Position numbers and translations under genes: made by a program. The notes below the pieces were generated by a model, which was given only the letters and a program-made list of their open reading frames with translations, was not told where the DNA came from and did no database searches. This document shows, piece by piece, positions 3,127-14,080 of a stretch of 14,080 bases of DNA. Source of the DNA: Bdellovibrio sp. (GTDB taxonomy: Bacteria; Bdellovibrionota; Bdellovibrionia; Bdellovibrionales; Bdellovibrionaceae); NCBI GenBank assembly GCA_046318155.1, contig JBKCUU010000045.1, positions 1-14,080 on the forward strand, written 5' to 3'. Position 1 is the first letter of the stretch. The number at the start of each line of letters is the position of its first letter.

Positions 3127-3621
3127 TTAGGCAGTTTTTTTGAAGGGCTCGAAATGGTCATTCAGCTGATCTTGCAGTAGCAGGGCTGGGTCAAAATCCT
3201 GAAAATCGAGCTGGCCACTGATTGACATCTCGCGCACCTGCAAAACGAGGCGCAGTTGAGCCGTCGCAAATTCGGCCTCGTCAAGCGGGGGAGTTTCTTC
3301 GAGTGCTTTTCGGAATGAGCTTTGGTAGGTGCGGGGGAGTGAACGCTCAATTTTTTCTCTGAGCACAGCTGGCGATTTTTGCCAGATGGCGACGGCAAGT
3401 TGCAAAGGCGACGACGCCCAAATTCGGCAGAGCACGGACTCGGGCCAGGTCAAAATTCGATCGCTGGAGAGCGTTTTTAGCTTAAGCAGATGCGCCCATC
3501 CTGGATCTTCCTGAGAAACCAAGTGAAGAAGAGTCTTCTGTTTTTGTGCGTCGCTCGACTCAACGAGAAGAATAAGTTTAAGAAAACCGCCGGATTGGCG
3601 AAAGCGTGAAAGGATGGACAT
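3127..3621 (-). CDS. Stand-alone FliG C-terminal-domain-like protein
   Basis: ATG at 3621 with GGAGG RBS. The N-terminus MSILSRFRQSGGFLKLILLVESS...EDPGWA resembles the Bdellovibrio-type small FliG_C-like family (recalled, not searched). C-terminal AQLRLVLQVREM..SGQL resembles the last FliG helix. Confidence 0.6.
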   Translation of the reverse strand: MSILSRFRQSGGFLKLILLVESSDAQKQKTLLHLVSQEDPGWAHLLKLKTLSSDRILTWPESVLCRIWASSPLQLAVAIWQKSPAVLREKIERSLPRTYQSSFRKALEETPPLDEAEFATAQLRLVLQVREMSISGQLDFQDFDPALLLQDQLNDHFEPFKKTA

Positions 3622-3637
3622 CGAGCCTCCAGTTAAC

Positions 3638-3664
3638 TTATCGGTCAAAGACGGTGTTTTTTAA
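3638..3664 (-). promoter_or_regulatory. Putative sigma28 (FliA) promoter
   Basis: Minus strand reads TTAA-N15-ACCGATAA versus consensus TAAA-N15-GCCGATAA, ending 16 nt upstream of the FliG-C-like start codon. Confidence 0.6.
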
Positions 3665-3694
3665 AGGGTCACACGCGCGCGCGCTCACACCCTT

Positions 3695-3711
3695 TGTCTC
3701 AACGCGAGACA
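3695..3711. repeat. Short palindrome TGTCTC-N5-GAGACA
   Basis: TGTCTC AACGC GAGACA directly abutting the stop codon of the AAA_28 gene. Confidence 0.5.
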
Positions 3712-4314
3712 TTAATCACCTAGAAGCTGCGAAATCTCAATGAAGCTTTTACCATCTATCATCATGCGGAGGGCTTTTTTGGCTTTTGCAATCTTGTCGA
3801 GGAATTCGTTCGAATGAGAGATCACGATGCGTTGAGGGTGGCCCTGCCAGGCGGCCTTAATGCGGTGGTTAATTTCGACAGCCTCTTTATGAGATTCGGT
3901 TCGCACGGGGTTGCTGGTATCAAAAAAATCCTGGTCCGCCGTGTCCAAGTGAAGAACCCATTGGTACCGCGCAAGCTCCTGGGCCCTTGAGGTGCCGAGG
4001 CTCTTAAAGAAATCGGCTTCGACATCGGGCCAATAGGCAATGCTATCGAGAGAACCGCGGTCGCAAACGATCACGTCTGTTTTTGAGTCTTCAATGGCAA
4101 GGTCCTCCAGTTCACGTTGCACAAAGCAGATCGCTCTTTGTGCATGACGTCGTCCATTTGAAGAGGATTTGCGCGGAAATCCGCCGCGATAAAGCAGGCT
4201 TGCGGCCTCGGGCACGATTGAAAGTAATCCCGTCATGTCTTTTTGTAAAGTCTCAATGAGAGTGGTTTTTCCACCCGAGGGTCCACCGGTGACAGCGATC
4301 GTGATTTTGCTCAT
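3712..4314 (-). CDS. AAA_28 / NadR-Ttd14-like P-loop NTPase
   Basis: IAVTGGPSGGKTT Walker A, VPEAA, and IVCDRGSLD Walker B motifs typical of AAA_28. Confidence 0.85.
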   Translation of the reverse strand: MSKITIAVTGGPSGGKTTLIETLQKDMTGLLSIVPEAASLLYRGGFPRKSSSNGRRHAQRAICFVQRELEDLAIEDSKTDVIVCDRGSLDSIAYWPDVEADFFKSLGTSRAQELARYQWVLHLDTADQDFFDTSNPVRTESHKEAVEINHRIKAAWQGHPQRIVISHSNEFLDKIAKAKKALRMMIDGKSFIEISQLLGD

Positions 4315-4324
4315 CCAGCGGAGA

Positions 4325-5077
4325 CTACTCGATTTCGAACTCGGCGAAAAGCGGAAGATGATCCGAGAGGGAGATCCAAGGGTGGCCTGAAAAAGTTTCG
4401 GCTGCCGTCAGTTTTAAACCACGAAAATAAATACGGTCCAGAGCTAGGCGGGGAAAGACCGCCGGAAACGTGCGGGCATGCTTGCCACGTTTCACCTTAA
4501 AGCACTCGCGCAAACCTAGAAACTCCTCAAAGAGCAGGGTCAGGGACTGGGGCCAGTCGTTAAAGTCGCCCGCCAGAATGATGGGCTCGTTGTCGGGGAC
4601 TTCCTTACGAAGCCAGTCAATCAATTGGCGCGTTTGCAGAATCCGTCCACCTTCAAGAAGGTTCAAATGTGTGGTGACGAGGTGCAGGGTGCGATCGGAC
4701 GGAAGGAGCGCGACCTTGGCGTGAAGAACGCCGCGGGACTCGTAGGTGTTCGTACTGACATCAAGATTGTGCGTCGAGAGCACTGGAAACTTGGACAAAA
4801 TCGCATTGCCATGGTGGCTTTCGGGAAAGACCGCATTCTTGCCATAGGAGTGATGCGGCCAGACGGTGTCGGCCAAAAATTCAAACTGAGTTTCAATTTG
4901 ATTTTTGTCGAGCTTTTTGTAGTGCTTGAGGTGCTTCTTGTTTTCGCCAACCACCTCTTGCAATAAGAGGATGTCGGCGCCGGTCTCTTTGAGCGCTTGG
5001 CGCATATCGGTCAAGGTCCAGTTGCCCCAGAGGTCAAAGCCTTTATGAATGTTGTAGGACAAGACCTTTATTTTCAT
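4325..5077 (-). CDS. ybhP: Endonuclease/exonuclease/phosphatase family protein (YbhP-like)
   Basis: SYNIHKG, LLQEV, HGNAILS, THL, AGDFNDW, LDRIYFRG and LSDHLP motifs. The ATG at 5077 overlaps the upstream stop (ATGA). Confidence 0.88.
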   Translation of the reverse strand: MKIKVLSYNIHKGFDLWGNWTLTDMRQALKETGADILLLQEVVGENKKHLKHYKKLDKNQIETQFEFLADTVWPHHSYGKNAVFPESHHGNAILSKFPVLSTHNLDVSTNTYESRGVLHAKVALLPSDRTLHLVTTHLNLLEGGRILQTRQLIDWLRKEVPDNEPIILAGDFNDWPQSLTLLFEEFLGLRECFKVKRGKHARTFPAVFPRLALDRIYFRGLKLTAAETFSGHPWISLSDHLPLFAEFEIE

Positions 5078-6237
5078 AACCAATACCGAAACCAGTAAAG
5101 GACTCGCGACAAGCCTCTTTGGTGCCAAGGAAATTTCGTCAAGTCACGCAGCCGATAAAGCTTTGAGACAGAAGCATCATGGTCCCACTGTTCGACCAAT
5201 TGCCCGATGAGGTCGGCAGATGTGATCACGGTTTCGACCTCAAGGTCATGCAGCATCGAGCGGTGGTTCATGTTATGAGATCCCACTGCTGCCCAGTCGT
5301 CGATGACCAACGTTTTGGCGTGCAAGACACGCGGTTTGTATTCGTAGAGGTGCACGCCTGCTTCGATCAGCTTTCGGTACAAGGTTTGTGAGGCCGCACG
5401 AACAAACCACACGTCCGTTTTTTCGGGCAAGATGAGGCCCACAAAAATGCCCCGCCTCGCTGCTTGGCGAAGCGCCACCAGCATCGATCGGCGAGGAACA
5501 AAGTAGGCATTTGTAATCAAGATGCGACTCTCGGCCGCGCGGATTTGATTGATGAGGTCGCGAAAGATGATGTACCGCGACCATGGGCGTGAGTTGAGAC
5601 GAAATCGACTGGGCTTCGGCCCGCGAAAGCGAAAGCCGGAGCGGGGCCGAAAGAGCCTGGTCGGTTGAGCAAAAAGTCTTCTGAGCGCACTCAAGCGCCA
5701 AGTTCGATCAAACGCCTTGGCCAGCAGTGCTGTTTCATGGTTGGGTTCATGAAACCGAAGTTCAATTCCAGTATCACGCCACGCCCGCTCGTCCATAAAT
5801 TCTTCAGTATGAACCTTGGTGATGTTCAAGCTGCCCATGAAGACGATTTTGCGATCGATCAAAATCACTTTGCGATGATTACGGCGGTTGATCTTTCTGA
5901 TAAAAAAAAGGTAGCGCCTTAAGTTTTTCCAGGAGAGTCGCAAACCACCTGAGAACGGAAGCGGGTGGTACACTCGAAGTGCGATCCCTGCACCCTGGCA
6001 CCGGGCGCGAAGTTCTCGAAGCCAATTGAAAGAACCGATGCCATCAACAAGAAGACGGACTTTAACGCCACGACTGTGTGCGGCTTCGAGCGCATAAAAA
6101 AAACGCAGCCCAATAGGGTCCATGTCAAAAATGTAGCTCTCGAGCAGGACCTCTTCTTTTGCAGACGCAATCGCTTCGAGTGCGCGTTCAAAATAGCGGT
6201 CTCCCGAGAAATGCAGTTGAACTAAAGGCTCTGACAT
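5074..6237 (-). CDS. clsB: Cardiolipin synthase B-like phospholipase D
   Basis: Two HxKxxxxD motifs (NHRKVILID, LHAKTLVID), plus WRDT and NAYFVP. No N-terminal TM anchor. Adjacent to a ybhP-like gene. Start uncertain (ATG 6237 or TTG 6303). Confidence 0.88.
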   Translation of the reverse strand: MSEPLVQLHFSGDRYFERALEAIASAKEEVLLESYIFDMDPIGLRFFYALEAAHSRGVKVRLLVDGIGSFNWLRELRARCQGAGIALRVYHPLPFSGGLRLSWKNLRRYLFFIRKINRRNHRKVILIDRKIVFMGSLNITKVHTEEFMDERAWRDTGIELRFHEPNHETALLAKAFDRTWRLSALRRLFAQPTRLFRPRSGFRFRGPKPSRFRLNSRPWSRYIIFRDLINQIRAAESRILITNAYFVPRRSMLVALRQAARRGIFVGLILPEKTDVWFVRAASQTLYRKLIEAGVHLYEYKPRVLHAKTLVIDDWAAVGSHNMNHRSMLHDLEVETVITSADLIGQLVEQWDHDASVSKLYRLRDLTKFPWHQRGLSRVLYWFRYWL

Positions 6238-6308
6238 ATAAAAATCATCAGGGGGAGACCTAAAAAATGAAAGCTCTTTTATGTTTGATGAGCTCTTTAA
6301 CAAATCAT

Positions 6309-7154
6309 CTACCGCCCAGGAAATAAGACCACGCGGTCTTGGTGCTTAGCTGGGATCTTTTTTTGTAAAAGTTCGAGCGCTGCCGCATCGCTGTACCGGC
6401 TCGAGGCATGAATCAAAACGATCTTTTCGGCCTGAATGTTGTCAAGCTCGGGGATCAGCTCGTTGAGATGCGTGTGTCCCCAAGTTCGGGCGTGTTCGAT
6501 GCTTTTCGTTTCATCAAGATAGGTCGATTCACAGATGAGCACTTTTGATTTTCGGATCCAGTCCGCTTGGTCTAAGAACTCGATCTGCGTGTCACCAGTG
6601 AAGCTAACCATCGGCGTTTCAATCAAGTGGTCAATGGCGACCTGCTTTTTTTTGAGCTGCCCAAGTTCGTGACCCTGGATGTGCTTGTATTCGGCTTTCA
6701 GCTTTTTGTTGACGGCGAACAGCGTGTAGCCAAAGGATTCGATCCGATGAACGGTCCTGAAAGGGCGAATCAGGGCTTGATTATTCAGCTCGATCCGCAA
6801 GCCGTGCTGAACCGGCTCAAAGCGAAGGGTGTATTTGTGCTCTTCGATCTCTTCCCACAGTTTCATCATTTTTGTAAGAGGATCAATCAAAGTCGGCGGC
6901 ATATAAAAAATTGGAGGGGCTTCGTTGTGCATCGCTTTTTGTGAGATGATGTAAGGGATCCCGGCGGCGTGATCCAGGTGACCATGCGTGATCAAAAACT
7001 TTTTCATGCGCAAGGTGAATGGGTAGCCTTGGGCGACATCAAATGACAGTCCGTAATCGGGCATCGAGATGGCCGTTCGGATGCCGCTTAAGGAAAGGCC
7101 AAAAAATTTGAAGCCGGCCGCTTCAAATGGCTCGCCAGCGGCGACGCCATTCAT
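6309..7154 (-). CDS. rnz: Metallo-beta-lactamase-fold hydrolase, short TM-type RNase Z-like
   Basis: THGHLDH, FTGDT, CESTY, GHTH and IHASSRY motifs, plus a KKLKAEY..I.G.EL..LKK flexible-arm motif. Start overlaps the upstream stop (ATGA). Confidence 0.8.
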   Translation of the reverse strand: MNGVAAGEPFEAAGFKFFGLSLSGIRTAISMPDYGLSFDVAQGYPFTLRMKKFLITHGHLDHAAGIPYIISQKAMHNEAPPIFYMPPTLIDPLTKMMKLWEEIEEHKYTLRFEPVQHGLRIELNNQALIRPFRTVHRIESFGYTLFAVNKKLKAEYKHIQGHELGQLKKKQVAIDHLIETPMVSFTGDTQIEFLDQADWIRKSKVLICESTYLDETKSIEHARTWGHTHLNELIPELDNIQAEKIVLIHASSRYSDAAALELLQKKIPAKHQDRVVLFPGR

Positions 7155-8467
7155 GCTTCAAAGTGGGTGTGAGCCACCACATCATGATTGAGCCATGTCA
7201 CAGGTGAAGCCGGTGCGGCCGAGTCTTCAACCATCACGGCGCCGCAGCTTGTGATGACGACTTCGCTCAGAACCGAGGTCATGAGATTTTTAGAATCTTT
7301 GTGCATCTCGAAAACTTTTTCGCTGGCTGCCAAAACAATCGACAGTTGTTTTTCTTCGTTGTGCTCTGGCCAGCTTGAAAAGTTAAATTTTTTCCGAAGC
7401 TCAGGATTGCTTAAGGTGTCATGGCAGACTTTGAGAACGTCCTGAATCGTGTGCTCTGGTTTGAGCAGCGCTCGGCAACTCTCTTCGAGTTTTTTGGTTT
7501 TGTTTGAAGTCGGGTTCTGCTTATTAAGAGAAAGCAACAGGGGATAAAGTGGTATTTCCACACCCTGAAAAATGCTTGAGGAGTTGGTCAAAATTTCGGG
7601 GCAGTTGTAGACACAAGTGCGAACACCTTGTTTGCTAAAGGCTCGGGATTGGTTTTCGAGATCTATTTTGGCCCAGCCTTGCAAATAGGGCGAGTAGGAT
7701 TGCCAGTCATACTCGCCGTTTACAAGAATTTCGGTCCCGTGGTAACCGTAAGCGGTGTAAGCCGCAAAGCCGCCTGATTTTTCGAGGTTCTCGCGGATCT
7801 CCTTGGTTTCTTCGACGAGCACGCGAAACGTTTCGGCCGTCACTTCATGAAAACTCAATTCACACAGCTTTCCGAGATCTGTTTTCCAGAATTTTTCACT
7901 CGAAAGATAGCGATCGCCCGTCCCTTTGACCGAGCGGTTCATGAGCGGCATGATAATTTTGGCACGAGGAACGCCGCCAGCCATCAGGTGGGCGAACAAG
8001 ATGTTTTTACCACTGGGCAATTGTTTTTTCAGTTCTTGAACGTAGGCGCGCACCGCGCGAGTAAAGCGCTCACGGCCCTTGTCGCGCGATTCATAAATTT
8101 TTTGAAAATCGAGCTGGCAGCTCTCCCATTCAGACAGCTTGGTGTCTTTGATCCGGTCCACGGGTGAGAGTCCATCACTGGCGGGTTCAAGATCAAATCC
8201 TGCTTCGAGCGGGATGTTGATCAGGGGTTGCGGGCTTGCGGCAAGCTCTTCGGCAGTGAGCGCGCGTAAGGTTCCCTCTTTTTCGCGGCGACCAACGGTC
8301 GCACGAATCACCCTCATGCCGCGGCGCTGGGCCGCTTCGACCAGACCGTTGGCGTAGCCGCGTGTGAACAGTTCGCCAAAAAGAACAAGGACATCACCTT
8401 CGCCAAATCCGGCTTTTTCGTTCTTTTTGAACTGGCGAATGGCATGGTAGCCTGGTGCTTGGAACAT
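7151..8467 (-). CDS. fabMG: Enoyl-ACP reductase, FabMG family
   Basis: GDVLVLFGELFTRGYANGL, TVGRR, IPLEAGFD, HLMAGGVP, YTAYGYHGT, WQSYSPYLQGWAK and NCPEILTNSS match my recollection of the FabMG family. ATG at 8467 with AGGGGG RBS (alternative start 8494). Confidence 0.8.
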   Translation of the reverse strand: MFQAPGYHAIRQFKKNEKAGFGEGDVLVLFGELFTRGYANGLVEAAQRRGMRVIRATVGRREKEGTLRALTAEELAASPQPLINIPLEAGFDLEPASDGLSPVDRIKDTKLSEWESCQLDFQKIYESRDKGRERFTRAVRAYVQELKKQLPSGKNILFAHLMAGGVPRAKIIMPLMNRSVKGTGDRYLSSEKFWKTDLGKLCELSFHEVTAETFRVLVEETKEIRENLEKSGGFAAYTAYGYHGTEILVNGEYDWQSYSPYLQGWAKIDLENQSRAFSKQGVRTCVYNCPEILTNSSSIFQGVEIPLYPLLLSLNKQNPTSNKTKKLEESCRALLKPEHTIQDVLKVCHDTLSNPELRKKFNFSSWPEHNEEKQLSIVLAASEKVFEMHKDSKNLMTSVLSEVVITSCGAVMVEDSAAPASPVTWLNHDVVAHTHFEA

Positions 8468-8530
8468 GGGTCCCCCTGTGAATGAAAAGCTCATTCATCC
8501 AAGGACGGCACTTTTGGTCAAGGATCAGCA

Positions 8531-9307
8531 ATGCGCGTTGTTAGCTTGGTACCCTCATTAACCGAAACTTTGATCGTTGCCGGCGCCGAGATCGTTGGTC
8601 GAACGCGTTATTGCGTGCATCCAAAGAGGCAAATCGAGCTCGTCCCCGTTGTGGGCGGTACGAAAGATCTTTCGCTCGAAAAATTGCGGAAGATGGGGCC
8701 CGATCTCCTTGTTTTAGACCAAGAAGAAAATCTGCCTTGGATGAAGGCAGATTCGCCGTGCCCGGTTCATGTTTTTCACGCCGAGTCTGTCGTGGGAATG
8801 TCTGCGCAGTTGCAGGCGCTTGCCTTGCGCTTTGAGCCCGGCCCCGTTCGGGAGCAGCTGGGGCACCAGGCGCAGGCCTGGCAAAAGGCCGCCGGTCATC
8901 CCAATCTTGAATGGAATTGGCTCCGGGTGCCAGGCACCGTCAAGAGCAAAAGAGGAGAGGCCAAGCCGCCTTATGACAAGGTTCTTTATCTCATCTGGAG
9001 AAATCCATGGATGAGCGTGAGCTCGCACACCTTTATCGGGTCCGTCTTCGAAAAACTGGGCGCGGCCCCTCATTGGCCCGCCTTTTCAGAAAAGTATCCC
9101 AAATTAAGGCTTGAGGACTTTGACCCGACCTCAACTTTGCTGCTTTTAAGTTCAGAGCCGTTTCCGTTCGGCGCCAAATGGGGGCAGCTGCCAGAGCTCG
9201 CCCCGTATGACCAAGTGCTGGTCGACGGCGAGAGCTTTAGTTGGTTTGGGATCCGGAGCCTTCGATTCTTGTCAGAACTCCAGGCGCGCTTTTCACACCA
9301 CGAATGA
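8531..9307 (+). CDS. Helical-backbone metal receptor (BtuF/TroA-like binding protein)
   Basis: MRVVSLVPSLTE, VGRTRYCVHP, VGGTKD, PDL...EEN, LLSSEPFPF and VDGESFSWFG motifs. Confidence 0.85.
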   Translation: MRVVSLVPSLTETLIVAGAEIVGRTRYCVHPKRQIELVPVVGGTKDLSLEKLRKMGPDLLVLDQEENLPWMKADSPCPVHVFHAESVVGMSAQLQALALRFEPGPVREQLGHQAQAWQKAAGHPNLEWNWLRVPGTVKSKRGEAKPPYDKVLYLIWRNPWMSVSSHTFIGSVFEKLGAAPHWPAFSEKYPKLRLEDFDPTSTLLLLSSEPFPFGAKWGQLPELAPYDQVLVDGESFSWFGIRSLRFLSELQARFSHHE

Positions 9308-12300
9308 AGACGGCCTGCGACGCATCGGTTCCCAGCATTTGTGAACGTTGAAATTCGCTTTCAAAACTGGTCGGAATGCTTTGCGAGCCGTGCAAGTAAG
9401 ACAAAAATCGGATCAAGTCCAGGTCACCGCGCATGGTGACGAAAAAGGGGCGGCTTGTTTCGGTTGAATCATCAATGATCTGGCCGCCACTGACGCGCTG
9501 ATTGATCACGTAAAAACTCTCGCTCGTTTTAAGCGTCTCTTGGCGATTTTGACCATCGCAGATCAGGTAGCCCGCACGAGCGTAGTGCTCCATCTCTTCG
9601 GCACTGAGCTTGGGATGAAAGCTTTTGACCCATGGGTTGCCGCTGGAGAAAAAGCCGTCTTCTTTTTTAACAAAAAGATTGGGATTGAGTTTAATCACCA
9701 AACATTTTTCATACTCGGGAATTTCAAGGTTGAGCTTTAACGTCTCGATCAACACGCCAATCGAACCCGAATAGCTGACACTTGTGCCTTGACCTTCTGA
9801 GACGCTACTTGATTTTGAAACGCTGTAGCCCGCACCCGTTGAAGCGCTAAATGGCAAACTGGAGATCTTCAGCAAATCAAGACCGAGGCCGACATTCCAG
9901 TTCCACGACTGGCTCACAGAATCCGAGTGGCCTTTGTTCAAAGAGAAGGACTGCGAGATCGAAAAGTCACGAAACGGCGTCGAGTTCTCGCTCACCGAAA
10001 GGAGCCTCGGGTTTTTGACAAAGTACTTTGTTTCGACATCAAAAACTGAGCGTAAATTTTGCTGCGCCAGGCGGTGGCACTCCGAGGTCAAAATAAAACT
10101 CGATGACGAAGGCGCAGCCGCCAGCACGCCATGGGTTTTATTCGGCAAGGGGCGCAGCCAAAAGTCATTAAACCAATAGGCACACAAGTTAACTTTAAGT
10201 TGGTCGCCGATTCCTGTGTCGAGCGTTTTTTTGAGATCAGCTGTTGAAATTTGCGTGCGTTCATTCATCCGCACGCGGGGATTTGCGAACTTGAGCGGCT
10301 GAGCCAGAGCCTGGCGAAATCCGGCCGTCGCCGCTTCATCATTGAGGTTGATCAAAGTCAGCTTATTGCTGGAGGCAAAGTTCTTGGTGTTTGCACTGAG
10401 CTCGGACCGAGCGGCCAGCGCTTTTTCGTCTTGAGTCAGCTGTTCTTTGAGCTTCGTGACAAGTGAACCCGTGTCAGGATCATCGATCATCGTAAACGTG
10501 CCCGCATCATTCCCATTCGAAAAATTGAGCGGCGCGCGAAAGCTTGCGATTTTAAGGTTCGAAGTCTTATCGATCAAATCGACAAAGGCAATCTGAGGGT
10601 TCTGTGCGAGCAGTTCGCCGGCATTCGCTTTCAACGGCAGCACCTCGATGATGAGTTGGTTGGTGTTGCCAAGCGCTTTGATGTTTTTTGTCGCTAATTG
10701 AATTTCCTCTGAAATTTGTGAATTGGCGCGAACGGGGAGAACTTTCTCCATCACGTAGAACACCTTGTTCTCGGCCTGATCAAAATCGCGCAAGAACTGA
10801 TCCACGACGGCCAAACGCACGCCGTAAAGACCGGGCGGCAGGAATTCTTCGGTAAAGCCCGACGGATCGCTGAGGCTTGGACGCTTGAGCTTGAGGCCCG
10901 CATTAAAAGGACCTTGCTTTTGGATTTCGAGATTCAAATAAGGATCAATTTTGTAATGAAACTGTTGTTTCGAAAAATAAAAGCTGCTGAGCATGATCTC
11001 GGCTTGGCCCTGAGCGCAGCGAAGAACTTTGGCTGAGGCATCCAGAAATCTGGCATCACGAAAGGCATCGCCTTGCATCCAGGGATTGTAATGCAAGTCA
11101 ATTTTTTGGGTAAAATTCGTGTTCTTATGAGAAATCTGGACCGAGCCGGACTTCCAGCACTCTTGAGCGTAATAGTTGAAGGAGACCTGATCATCGACGA
11201 TAAAGCAGCCTTCATCATTGGTCATGACTCGCTTTTTTTCGCCCGATAGAGTTTGGATTTCAAGTTCGGCAAGACGAACCGGCGCGCGGTCCCAGCCCGA
11301 GCGCAGGCAGGACTGAATTTGCAAATTGCGCTTACGGTTCACGCCGCCCGACTGTTCAAACGAGATCGTCGAAATCGAGAGGGGGCGTATTTCAAGTGCC
11401 TGGGTCTGAACGGGTTGGTCGACGGTCTTTGGGGCCGCTTCTTCGAGGTAAGTTTCGATCGTGAGGGCCGGATCACGTTCAAAGCGGTTTTTAAAATCAG
11501 AGACGGCTGTTCCCCAAGCTGTTCCGCGGGCTTCGCAAGTGCCGTAATAAAAAACACCTTCTAATTTCTTAAGACCCACAGGAGAGTCGATGGGTTCAAC
11601 CTTAACCCCAAGGTAAACCACGCCCGACCGGCACAGACCACCAGCGGGAAGATCAAACTGTTCACTGATAGAAAGCGAGCCCTGAACAAGGTCGTTGACA
11701 ATCAGGACTGGCGACTTTTTGATCACTCGGCGAACGGTCTTACTTTCTTGATCTGTCTGATAATAAAGCGTGTACTGAAACTTGAACTGACCGCGTGTGA
11801 GCGGAAACGTCGTGCGCGAGCCGCCAACATCTTGACCTTCATACGACAAAACACCAGTCAGATCGAGCGAAGCTTTGCGCTGGAGACCATCGATCGTCAG
11901 GGGCTGCAAAGTGATGCGCATGCCATCAAGAACCAAGGCCCGCGCGGGAGCTTGGCGTCCTTTCAGAGCTTCGCGGGCTTGCGCTTGCGTGACATAAGAG
12001 TTGGCTCGAACACGCGAGTCCTTCAGAGATAAAGCTTCGCCCGACCAAGGGTTGATCACGACTTGAATCAGCCGCGAACCCTTCTCGACACCAACCGCTT
12101 TGGCTTGGCGTTCAACTAAAATACTTTGGGCCGAGGCCATCGCGTTGTACGAGATTTCTTCGGTAAAAACAAAGCAACCTTCTAAATCAGAAGAAACGGT
12201 TTGCGTGGCAAAATCATCGCCCGAAATTTCAAAGGCGTGATTGATCACGGGACGCGATTGCTTGTTCTCTTTGAGGCAGGCCTTAACGCTCAGGGTGCGG

Positions 12301-12485
12301 GCAATCGGAATCGAGAACGAAGCATGCGTGCTTTGAGTGGTGAACTCGGGTCTGACGGAGTCGACAAAAAAGCTTGCGTTGTGGTCAAGATCCCGCTTTT
12401 GCGGCGCCGGGAGCGAGCACGCCGCAAGTGCCATAAAGCCCAGCGCAAAAATAAGTCTCCAGAGAGTCAGATTAGAGTGGCGCAT
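9237..12485 (-). CDS. Large hypothetical lipoprotein (1082 aa) with internal duplication and Ser-rich beta-hairpin
   Basis: ATG at 12485 gives MRHSNLTLWRLIFALGFMALAAC, a signal peptide II with lipobox LAAC (Cys23). Long uninterrupted beta-rich ORF. Confidence 0.85.
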   Translation of the reverse strand: MRHSNLTLWRLIFALGFMALAACSLPAPQKRDLDHNASFFVDSVRPEFTTQSTHASFSIPIARTLSVKACLKENKQSRPVINHAFEISGDDFATQTVSSDLEGCFVFTEEISYNAMASAQSILVERQAKAVGVEKGSRLIQVVINPWSGEALSLKDSRVRANSYVTQAQAREALKGRQAPARALVLDGMRITLQPLTIDGLQRKASLDLTGVLSYEGQDVGGSRTTFPLTRGQFKFQYTLYYQTDQESKTVRRVIKKSPVLIVNDLVQGSLSISEQFDLPAGGLCRSGVVYLGVKVEPIDSPVGLKKLEGVFYYGTCEARGTAWGTAVSDFKNRFERDPALTIETYLEEAAPKTVDQPVQTQALEIRPLSISTISFEQSGGVNRKRNLQIQSCLRSGWDRAPVRLAELEIQTLSGEKKRVMTNDEGCFIVDDQVSFNYYAQECWKSGSVQISHKNTNFTQKIDLHYNPWMQGDAFRDARFLDASAKVLRCAQGQAEIMLSSFYFSKQQFHYKIDPYLNLEIQKQGPFNAGLKLKRPSLSDPSGFTEEFLPPGLYGVRLAVVDQFLRDFDQAENKVFYVMEKVLPVRANSQISEEIQLATKNIKALGNTNQLIIEVLPLKANAGELLAQNPQIAFVDLIDKTSNLKIASFRAPLNFSNGNDAGTFTMIDDPDTGSLVTKLKEQLTQDEKALAARSELSANTKNFASSNKLTLINLNDEAATAGFRQALAQPLKFANPRVRMNERTQISTADLKKTLDTGIGDQLKVNLCAYWFNDFWLRPLPNKTHGVLAAAPSSSSFILTSECHRLAQQNLRSVFDVETKYFVKNPRLLSVSENSTPFRDFSISQSFSLNKGHSDSVSQSWNWNVGLGLDLLKISSLPFSASTGAGYSVSKSSSVSEGQGTSVSYSGSIGVLIETLKLNLEIPEYEKCLVIKLNPNLFVKKEDGFFSSGNPWVKSFHPKLSAEEMEHYARAGYLICDGQNRQETLKTSESFYVINQRVSGGQIIDDSTETSRPFFVTMRGDLDLIRFLSYLHGSQSIPTSFESEFQRSQMLGTDASQAVFIRGVKSAPGVLTRIEGSGSQTN

Positions 12486-13644
12486 CGAGAGTCTCCAAAG
12501 AAAGAGAGAAAAAACGTTCACGACTTTGAGAGGTACTTTCAAACAAGACATCACGTTCGCCGCCGCTCATGCCAAAACGAAAGATTTTCTTGTATTGCAA
12601 ACTCAGGCCGGTCTCATAACCGACTCGGTTGGTCTGATAGGTCGGAGAGCTGTAGTAGGCCACGCTCGCATCCGGCTGAACATAAAAGTATTCAAACGAG
12701 GGGCTCCATTTGATGGCCCCAGACCACAAGTCTGCTTTGGTAAAAACCGTGTACCCTTGGCTCATTTCTGAAGGGGCTCCGACGTTTTTAATTCCGTTGG
12801 CTTCAATTTCCAAACCCAAGGATTTTGAGAGGTCGAGCCGGGCGGACAAGCCCCCTTCAGTGCCGCGGTAGTCATAGTAAAATTCAGAAATGCCAGCCGA
12901 GGGACCTGAGGCCGCTGTTGAATTTCCTAGAAGAGCAGAATCTGTTGCGATGCCTGAGGGCAAGTCGCGGTACTCGAAATACATGGCACGGGCTCTCAGC
13001 GTCAAAGATTGCAACTTCAGCTGAGTCTTCACACCGCCACTTGTGAAAGAGGGCGTCTTTTCAAAGTCACGTGAGTTCGTCGTCAATGAGGACGACGTCG
13101 GTACTGCGGATTGACCAACAAGAGCCGCATACGACTCGGAGCTTGCACCTGTTTGCAAGGTGAGGCGAGCAGCCGGAAACGCCAAATCGTCAACGAGCAA
13201 ACCCGAAAGATCCCGCGTTTGGTTGAGCGCCCCTATAGAGAACTGAGCCCCTTCGCCGGCGTGCAAGTTGACCGACGCTTCTGACAACTCAAGAATGTTG
13301 GATTTTCCGTATTTGGCTGAATCTGACTGCACGTGTCCGTTTTGAAAATAGACGCGGGGATTGACGGTTAAATTTAAAAATGAAGTCAGGTCGTAATTGC
13401 TATTTACAATGGCCGAGAATGAAGAGCCCGTTTTTCGATTGGCCAAAGCGTCTTCCTTGCGAGCTGCGCCGATGGATAAGCGCCAAGTGGCCTTCAAGTT
13501 TTTGCGGTCCCAAGCCTGTTCGTTGTCGTCTGGACTCAGAGTTGTCTGGCCAGTTAAACCCACGGGAGCTTGCGCCAAACGAAGGTTCGTTTGGGCGGTT
13601 GCCAAGGCTGGAATGAGGGTTAAAACCAACGCTCGCCAGAACAA
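12472..13644 (-). CDS. Putative outer-membrane beta-barrel / porin-like protein (390 aa)
   Basis: AAGGAG RBS 7 nt before TTG. Signal peptide MFWRALVLTLIPALATA/Q. Many alternating amphipathic strands. YFYVQPDASVAYYSS...TNRVG resembles the 'putative porin' motif. Confidence 0.75.
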   Translation of the reverse strand: MFWRALVLTLIPALATAQTNLRLAQAPVGLTGQTTLSPDDNEQAWDRKNLKATWRLSIGAARKEDALANRKTGSSFSAIVNSNYDLTSFLNLTVNPRVYFQNGHVQSDSAKYGKSNILELSEASVNLHAGEGAQFSIGALNQTRDLSGLLVDDLAFPAARLTLQTGASSESYAALVGQSAVPTSSSLTTNSRDFEKTPSFTSGGVKTQLKLQSLTLRARAMYFEYRDLPSGIATDSALLGNSTAASGPSAGISEFYYDYRGTEGGLSARLDLSKSLGLEIEANGIKNVGAPSEMSQGYTVFTKADLWSGAIKWSPSFEYFYVQPDASVAYYSSPTYQTNRVGYETGLSLQYKKIFRFGMSGGERDVLFESTSQSRERFFSLSLETLDAPL

Positions 13645-13800
13645 GTGAAAACTCCTTTAGAACGACGGTGCGGTTTGGGTCCAAGTCCCCACCTCCAAAA
13701 ACAGTGCTCAGTTGTCGTTAAAAACAACGTCATGGGTTCGAATACACGGGCCCTGCGGCGCCGTCCTGGCCGAATTGTAAAAATGAGAGGCGGCGAAGTT

Positions 13801-14080
13801 TTAGACGGGTGACGATTTCGGCAAGCCGAGTTTTGTCTCAACCCAAACGACGACTCGAGCAGTTGCCCCCGAAAATTCGCGGACAACGCCGGCCAGTTCG
13901 GGTTTGATGGCGGGTCCATTTTGCCGGTCAGTTTGCCACTGATTTTGCCACTGAGTTTGCCACTGAGTTTGTAACCGAAAAATTTTGTTTTTAAGCTCGC
14001 CGCCGTTGTCGACTTGGCGAACGGCCGTGTCGCCATTTGAAAGTTTGATTCCCTGAAATTGCAAAGCCTCACGGTTGTTT
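13801..14080 (-). CDS. Probable 3' end of a hypothetical protein entering from the window edge
   Basis: The frame is open from the window end (NNREALQFQG...) to TAA at 13801-13803. No family recognised. Confidence 0.4.
   Translation of the reverse strand, partial: NNREALQFQGIKLSNGDTAVRQVDNGGELKNKIFRLQTQWQTQWQNQWQTDRQNGPAIKPELAGVVREFSGATARVVVWVETKLGLPKSSPV
13916..13971. repeat. 12-bp tandem repeat, about 4.5 copies
   Basis: Minus strand: CAAACTCAGTGG CAAACTCAGTGG CAAAATCAGTGG CAAACTGACCGG CAAAATGG. Confidence 0.85.

Follow-up and report, generated by a model that had tools for sequence, protein, structure and literature searches.

We analysed a window of 14,080 nucleotides (the whole stretch shown above, contig JBKCUU010000045.1 of the Bdellovibrio sp. 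assembly GCA_046318155.1) and describe a pair of overlapping genes that encode an outer-membrane beta-barrel and a large lipoprotein. In our leading reading, to which we tentatively give somewhat less than an even chance, the pair is a surface-tethered predicted beta-pore-former with a dedicated porin-type barrel, and its likely targets are the membranes of the prey while the predator enters or afterwards. The gene overlap had been proposed in an earlier sequence-only reading of the window and is borne out: both open reading frames (ORFs) lie on the minus strand, with the ends then assigned, and share 14 bp (12472..12485). The barrel gene (12472..13644, minus strand, 390 aa, orthologue CAE80200.1) begins with TTG, 7 nt downstream of a Shine-Dalgarno motif AGGAG read from the sequence (13652..13656, minus strand), and encodes a predicted 16-stranded porin-type barrel resembling Porin_5 (PF16930). 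The lipoprotein gene (9237..12485, minus strand, 1082 aa, orthologue CAE80201.1) runs from an ATG at 12485 to a stop at 9237; a longer GTG start at 12554 was dropped, since the ATG has a ribosome site and the conserved overlap. The signal peptides of both proteins were judged by eye.

The junction between the two genes (12472..12496, minus strand) holds a GGAG at 12496-12493, the lipoprotein ATG at 12485 and the barrel stop at 12472, so that the ribosome-binding site and start codon of the lipoprotein are embedded in the last codons of the barrel. The GGAG lies inside conserved L-E-T codons, and the C-terminal motif of the barrel subfamily, E-T/x-x-Y, doubles as the start signal of its partner. 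Among 44 distinct full-length barrel ORFs from fetched loci (fragments and duplicates dropped, distant paralogues hand-picked from match lists included), a lipobox ORF follows in 43, a Met falls at exactly the 14-bp overlap in 42 and at 20 bp in one further, and both a Shine-Dalgarno-like word and an ATG stand at the junction in 40. Seen from the other gene, the barrel is directly upstream of the lipoprotein in 31 of the 32 loci read (30 of them distinct), the remaining one beginning at the edge of a contig, and in 20 further loci from across the phylum it is directly upstream of 15/21 lipoprotein genes (12 at 14 bp, 1 at 17 bp, 2 gapped). The genomes counted are kin, so these counts measure conservation and not independent events. 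Judged from sequence, the 14-bp overlap is beyond chance, and the counts support a dedicated unit of barrel and lipoprotein with predicted translational coupling, as had been suggested from the window alone; the expected synteny across Bdellovibrionota stands to the extent of these loci. At one locus (L050) the barrel is kept and the lipoprotein lost, and the embedded GGAG and ATG are lost too; genome G020, of the same lineage, is the same case.

Reduced and enlarged versions of the pair point to where the two proteins may meet. At locus L044 (6495-8136) a barrel is paired with a 174-aa lipoprotein consisting of the first domain of the window lipoprotein only (domain A), which makes this domain the likely docking partner of the barrel. 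A second short, domain-A-only partner of this kind occurs in genome G108, and at L076 (3143-16418) one barrel gene is followed by two tandem 1500-aa lipoprotein copies. The L044 pair adjoins a phytochrome-like kinase, response regulators and a haem oxygenase-like gene (labels assigned by eye). In genus g9 the two homologues read (L048, 4255-7596; L049, 3853-7242) have no lipobox Cys and no barrel upstream, and barrel profile matches were found in 0/5 g9 genomes; both retain the stalk and the pore module and are possibly a released form.

The 390-aa protein, whose barrel fold had been assumed, does model as a 16-stranded porin-type barrel. An AlphaFold2 model from 50 sequences (predicted local distance difference test, pLDDT, 88.5; predicted template modelling score 0.84) has 16 long strands and no accessory domain, and the N-terminus of the 373-residue model is just 27 disordered residues, with no TPR, plug or POTRA region. 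Porins were the best Foldseek matches of the model (top OmpM1, template modelling (TM) score 0.57, E 2e-11). The ESM Atlas placed the barrel with Bdellovibrionota clusters and Porin_5 clusters at 0.96-0.97, the Pfam profile PF16930 weakly matched 2/50 aligned barrels (best E 0.0025), and the barrel profile had no match among PDB sequences. The barrel subfamily of the window differs from stand-alone Porin_5-like genes such as those of G116 and G158, which have no lipoprotein partner; their weak barrel matches were rejected as members of the pair.

The analogy to SLAM or SusC that the sequence-only reading had drawn does not hold as family membership: with its predicted 16-stranded porin-type fold, the barrel is not a SLAM, SusC or Omp85 protein. 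SLAM proteins combine a 14-stranded barrel with a TPR region at the N-terminus, and SLAM cargo ends in a small barrel; the likeness to this type XI lipoprotein export lies in an outer-membrane barrel gene adjoining a lipoprotein cargo gene, whereas the window pair has 16 strands, no TPR region and a cargo ending in a predicted pore module, and SLAM membership was rejected. SusC/SusD is likewise a fixed pair of a barrel gene followed by a lipoprotein gene. SusC, a TonB-dependent transporter, has 22 strands and a plug, and SusD is helical; membership was rejected for a 16-stranded porin-type barrel without a plug and without a helical SusD-like partner. Two-partner secretion (TpsB/TpsA), in which an Omp85 barrel bearing POTRA domains serves a beta-helical cargo, was rejected too, the model having no POTRA and the cargo being a lipoprotein with Ig-like domains.

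The lipoprotein (AlphaFold2 model from 68 sequences, pLDDT 84) is predicted to comprise four beta-sandwich domains, a helical region and a long-strand domain. From the N-terminus, and all on the minus strand, these are a lipoprotein signal peptide with lipobox LAAC and Cys23 (12417..12485), a Cys shared by 98% of the 106 relatives in the alignment; Ig-like domain A1 (about residues 36-150, 12036..12380) with invariant Cys70 and Cys104 and an NPW motif, the smallest unit found with a barrel; beta-sandwich domain B1 (about residues 180-326, 11508..11948), delimited by model, fold and domain comparison; Ig-like domain A2 (about residues 362-470, 11076..11402) with Cys393 and Cys427, a duplicate of A1; beta-sandwich domain B2 (about residues 495-667, 10485..11003), a remote duplicate of B1; and a helical linker region (about residues 675-814, 10044..10463) with Cys768 and Cys803, drawn from column profile and model. 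The repeated spacer modules that had been noticed earlier are real repeats by hhalign (domain 1 against 3, 99.4%, E 5e-22; domain 2 against 4, 55%, E 1e-4; cross-comparisons below 1%). Relatives have one, two or three Ig-like domain pairs and total lengths of about 690 to 1900 aa, and the layout of the window protein recurs in 147/178 proteins. Fold matches of the first 660 or so residues are RTX-adhesin extender, invasin, intimin and macroglobulin Ig-like repeats (Z 6-9), and the whole model drew Ig-like matches only, the best with Z 9.0 over 76 residues. Such generic matches to a predicted fold suggest a stalk and nothing beyond it. No pore-forming toxin was listed in this whole-model search, in which residues beyond about 477 were barely tested. 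Residues 181-357 (about 11415-11945) matched domains I-II of Shewanella MtrC with a middling score (Z 7.2, root-mean-square deviation 3.9, 149 aligned); MtrC is a surface lipoprotein that is itself bound to a porin.

The C-terminal module (about residues 815-1033, 9387..10043, minus strand) is, by our estimate from its sequence, probably a beta-pore-former. It has long strands in the model (815-853, 899-933, 972-996), with fold searches dominated by the N-terminal domains, and invariant Cys928, Cys976, Glu989 and Arg1019. Its predicted membrane-inserting stem (residues 840-911, 9753..9968, minus strand) is defined by the column profile, residues 852-900 having pLDDT below 50. Across 106 relatives the stem strictly alternates hydrophobic with Ser/Gly columns, has a hydrophobic tip and Ser/Thr-rich flanks, and keeps a hairpin length of about 78 residues; Ser and Thr make up 27% of the stem and 15% overall. 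Residues 840-911 therefore have the amphipathic insertion hairpin with Ser/Thr-rich flanks of aerolysin-type toxins, and the distal pore-like hairpin proposed earlier is upheld as a sequence pattern. Toxins also dominate remote matches: all three PDB matches of the full lipoprotein profile (E up to 1) and 23/26 of the C-terminal profile (E up to 5) are beta-pore-forming toxins, and in the ESM Atlas aerolysin, ETX/MTX2 and monalysin clusters stand at 0.90-0.92, behind three unnamed clusters, a range that is uncalibrated for protein parts. The C-terminal tail (residues 1034-1082, 9240..9386, minus strand) is a variable low-confidence loop followed by a conserved P-x-x-P-G motif. Aerolysin carries a propeptide and, speculatively and by analogy, the tail may be one too. 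Stems vary among paralogues: those of L066, L068, L069 and L073, all barrel-less, are more charged and aromatic, that of L036 has a glycine-zipper-like hydrophobic segment and that of L042 a long insertion, and their targets may differ.

The pair has counterparts in a model predator. B. bacteriovorus HD100 has proteins identical to the L025 pair, CAE80200.1 and CAE80201.1, which are annotated as hypothetical, and from gene order against the PhoD gene Bd2384 we infer that they are Bd2381 and Bd2382. Published data support their joint induction early in predation, between 15 min and 2 h. In a predation proteome (PMC12546842), Bd2382 (24 peptides) has a log2 fold change of +0.98 to +1.13 at 30-60 min, highest at 1 h, with a false discovery rate of 0.001-0.007, and is raised significantly between 30 min and 3 h of the time course; Bd2381, with imputed values, reaches +0.46 to +0.59 log2 fold change at 15-60 min, highest at 45 min, and both are down at 5-7 h. 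Both genes are also in the microarray predatosome list, up 1.36 to 1.60-fold in the bdelloplast and not in host-independent growth (PMC2797640).

Distribution may bear on lifestyle. Within the family, the lipoprotein matched in 108/182 genomes and the barrel in 109/182, and the lipoprotein profile matched 152/401 genomes sampled from the phylum. Most Bdellovibrio have a single copy, and paralogues with varied stems have expanded in several genera; in genus g38 the lipoprotein profile matched 0/14 genomes. Genomes G116 and G117 have kdtA immediately next to the TroA-like gene, the pair being absent from this position, and a search with the pore-module profile, run without a positive control, found nothing in either. 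Sources assign the FabMG proteins of these two genomes to P. exovorus and B. qaytius, which have been described as epibiotic and basal (10.1101/506055). By gene content, the pair is missing from the clade of these two epibiotic predators.

From these observations we infer a sequence of steps that beyond co-expression is conjectural as to export or clamping, reach, oligomerisation and target. Coupling would yield matched amounts of barrel and lipoprotein. The lipoprotein would use the Lol route to reach the outer membrane, where the barrel would export it or clamp its first domain at the surface. One to three Ig-like domain pairs would set the reach, the stalk keeping the tip off the predator's own membrane, and several tips would oligomerise and insert their 840-911 hairpins as a beta-barrel pore. 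The likeliest target would be the prey inner membrane, faced from the periplasm, because levels peak 30 min to 2 h after mixing and the epibiotic relatives are without the pair. On E. coli and V. cholerae the role would be accessory or redundant. Prey are reported to lose their proton motive force early on, and PopA to pass into the prey inner membrane (PMC12228718); PopA as a possible redundant route would explain neutral transposon sequencing (Tn-seq). A more ambitious version, a new lipoprotein export-and-display system of predatory Bdellovibrionota in which the barrel carries the giant lipoprotein by its first Ig-like domain and tethered aerolysin-type tips open pores in the prey inner membrane from the periplasm, we regard as possible but doubtful.

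Several findings weigh against a tethered pore-former acting on prey. In Tn-seq of strain 109J (multiplicity 0.001-0.01, four prey conditions), W is 1.05-2.08 for all seven genes of the interval (PMC6561027, data set S2), and predation genes in the same experiment have W below 0.1 (PMC6561027). The interval runs from the gliding MotA-like gene to the TroA-like gene and has seven table rows against six genes seen, mapped by gene order; the exact rows are uncertain, and the conclusion holds that the pair is dispensable for killing standard laboratory prey. Two genomes of one Bdellovibrio lineage, G019 and G020, no longer have the lipoprotein although their barrel is intact, and the barrel may therefore serve some purpose by itself; the FabMG cluster of G019 is called B. 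bacteriovorus or B. reynosensis by the sources. With no predation defect in Tn-seq and two such losses, an essential role for the invasion device envisaged at the outset is not supported. Synteny also fails for 6/21 lipoprotein genes in the phylum-wide set, which have no barrel directly upstream. Each PDB match of the stem is weak by itself (E 0.01-2.5), its Ser/Thr composition may have raised the scores, and no Pfam toxin family passes its cut-off on the module, the best E values being 0.036 and 0.074 (PF01117 0.074; PF03318 also tried). Induction at the protein level is modest, 1.4 to 2.2-fold, with Bd2381 imputed, and Bd2381 and Bd2382 are unnamed in the readable supplement on the invasion-vesicle proteome (PMC10769870). 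As for lifestyle, 1/53 of genomes G116-G168 does match (G120, a g38 genome carrying the pair), the epibiotic absence is limited to one clade and is one event at most, differences in gene content may not be functional (10.1101/506055), and the window comes from an uncultured genome.

Other explanations redistribute this evidence. The same tethered pore-former and barrel might be aimed at non-prey membranes, those of protists swallowing the predator or bdelloplast or of rival predators in the same prey. In its favour, there is no Tn-seq defect on pure prey cultures, the solved toxins that the module resembles act on eukaryotic cells, and the paralogue expansion with varied stems has the look of an arms race; against this stand the joint induction when prey is met, which is not seen in host-independent growth, the absence of the pair from epibiotic relatives that are likewise grazed, and the lack of a recognised lectin or other receptor-binding domain. 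On balance we consider a non-prey target unlikely. A reading without any pore, as an adhesin or anchor with an invasin- or RTX-adhesin-like stalk whose hairpin grips a membrane and joins predator to prey, is in our judgement quite unlikely. It draws on the best structural matches of the first 660 residues, which are adhesin-type Ig repeats, and on the description of Bdellovibrio adhesins as redundant (PMC11003981), which fits the neutral Tn-seq, but it leaves a hairpin that has every part of a beta-pore-former stem and is as long as one (about 78 residues in 106 relatives) and protein levels that peak after attachment.

The remaining two concern the direction and the use of the molecule. A lipobox alone is no proof of surface exposure, and the lipoprotein might hang from the barrel into the predator periplasm as a conduit or brace of its own envelope for squeezing in and growth; among solved folds the barrel comes nearest to OmpM1 (TM 0.57), a porin that serves outer-membrane attachment, and most Bdellovibrio have a single copy. 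We find such a structural role very unlikely for a protein whose stalk varies from one to three repeats and whose total length ranges from about 690 to 1900 aa, in a pair that is dispensable and lost in whole clades, and with a pore-former that would harm the predator if directed at itself. A translocase of the binary-toxin B type, its pore passing predator enzymes into the prey, would account for the several stem matches to binary-toxin binding components (C2-II, CdtB, Vip1, Vip4). B components of the PA type have PA14 and oligomerisation domains around the stem and a cognate enzyme gene. Here the stem residues alone align to binary-toxin components, the loci read show no conserved cargo or enzyme gene next to the pair, and the matches with the best coverage are aerolysin-type, as is every Atlas family, which makes translocation highly improbable. 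A tethered pore-former acting on prey membranes remains our preferred reading.

Barrel-plus-lipoprotein units and aerolysin-type toxins are both known; what appears to be new is that they are joined here, with a barrel of porin fold and an Ig-like stalk that varies, and the pair is likely an undescribed tethered weapon against prey membranes. Aerolysin/ETX-MTX2 toxins (parasporin-2, monalysin, natterin, SaroL-1) were nearest in the ESM Atlas and PDB profile searches and share the amphipathic hairpin, hydrophobic tip, long strands and Ser/Thr-rich flanks. Known members are soluble, secreted proteins; the window module, by contrast, ends a lipid-anchored protein of 700-1900 aa with an Ig-like stalk and a partner barrel, and falls below Pfam cut-offs. 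The secreted Bacteroidales toxins BSAP and CDCL resemble it as antibacterial beta-pore-formers from Gram-negative bacteria, and differ in being diffusible and of the MACPF/CDC fold. These toxins are not known to have a dedicated barrel. PopA (Bd0427) and the MAT fibres of B. bacteriovorus are likewise predator envelope proteins tied to prey membranes, PopA being reported at the prey inner membrane (PMC12228718), but PopA is pentameric and porin-like and MAT fibres are trimeric, folds that differ from those of the window pair. Bd2381 and Bd2382 are unnamed in the passages and term searches of the PopA and MAT fibre papers (including PMC12228718 and PMC10769870). Literature searches (Bd2379-Bd2384, protein accessions, and Bdellovibrio or Bdellovibrionota with pore-forming or aerolysin; PMC12034629, PMC13689555 and PMC12228718 by term) gave no description of the pair, most subscription papers and bioRxiv supplements being outside their reach.

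The Bdellovibrionaceae host that had been assumed is supported: the closest named relative of the window lipoprotein, at 71% identity, is in a Bdellovibrionaceae genome. The host genome (window on contig C45) spans 2.75 Mb, is 95% complete, and yielded no paralogue of either gene when searched. As single proteins, neither the barrel nor the lipoprotein had a match in Pfam or PDB sequence searches, and the sole NCBIfam match of the lipoprotein is a weak Ser-rich one (E 0.004). On one side of the pair lies kdtA, and on the other a TroA-like gene that is convergent (8531-9307, plus strand) and that the lipoprotein 3' end overlaps by 71 bp (9237-9307); a comparable overlap occurs in the close relative L003. 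In the 3' end of kdtA (13927-13975) a 12-bp unit recurs imperfectly about four times, as Q-T/N-Q-W repeats; these are missing from the L003 orthologue. On the minus strand, 3127-8494 is a conserved run of FabMG, a metallo-beta-lactamase-fold gene, a cardiolipin synthase-like PLD gene, an endonuclease/phosphatase, AAA_28 and a FliG_C-like gene, whose order largely recurs in L033, L050, L053 and L057. In L003, pilin-like, cysteine-rich genes are inserted after the metallo-beta-lactamase-fold gene (12234-14173), and in the Bdellovibrio locus L033 (385-7696) the place that kdtA takes in the window is filled by a TolQ/ExbD/TPR cluster of the gliding-motility type together with a chloride channel gene.

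[quoted passage not shown] Since the pair corresponds to two named, expressed and non-essential genes of a model strain, deletion, tagging and pore assays are feasible at once. If our preferred reading is correct, a cell-tethered aerolysin-type protein that targets bacteria and has a dedicated porin-fold partner would broaden the toxin family and also add to the known ways in which lipoproteins are displayed at the surface. Should the export-and-display version also prove true, the pair would provide an agent, so far missing, for the early depolarisation of prey, and a molecular marker by which invasive and epibiotic predators could be told apart.

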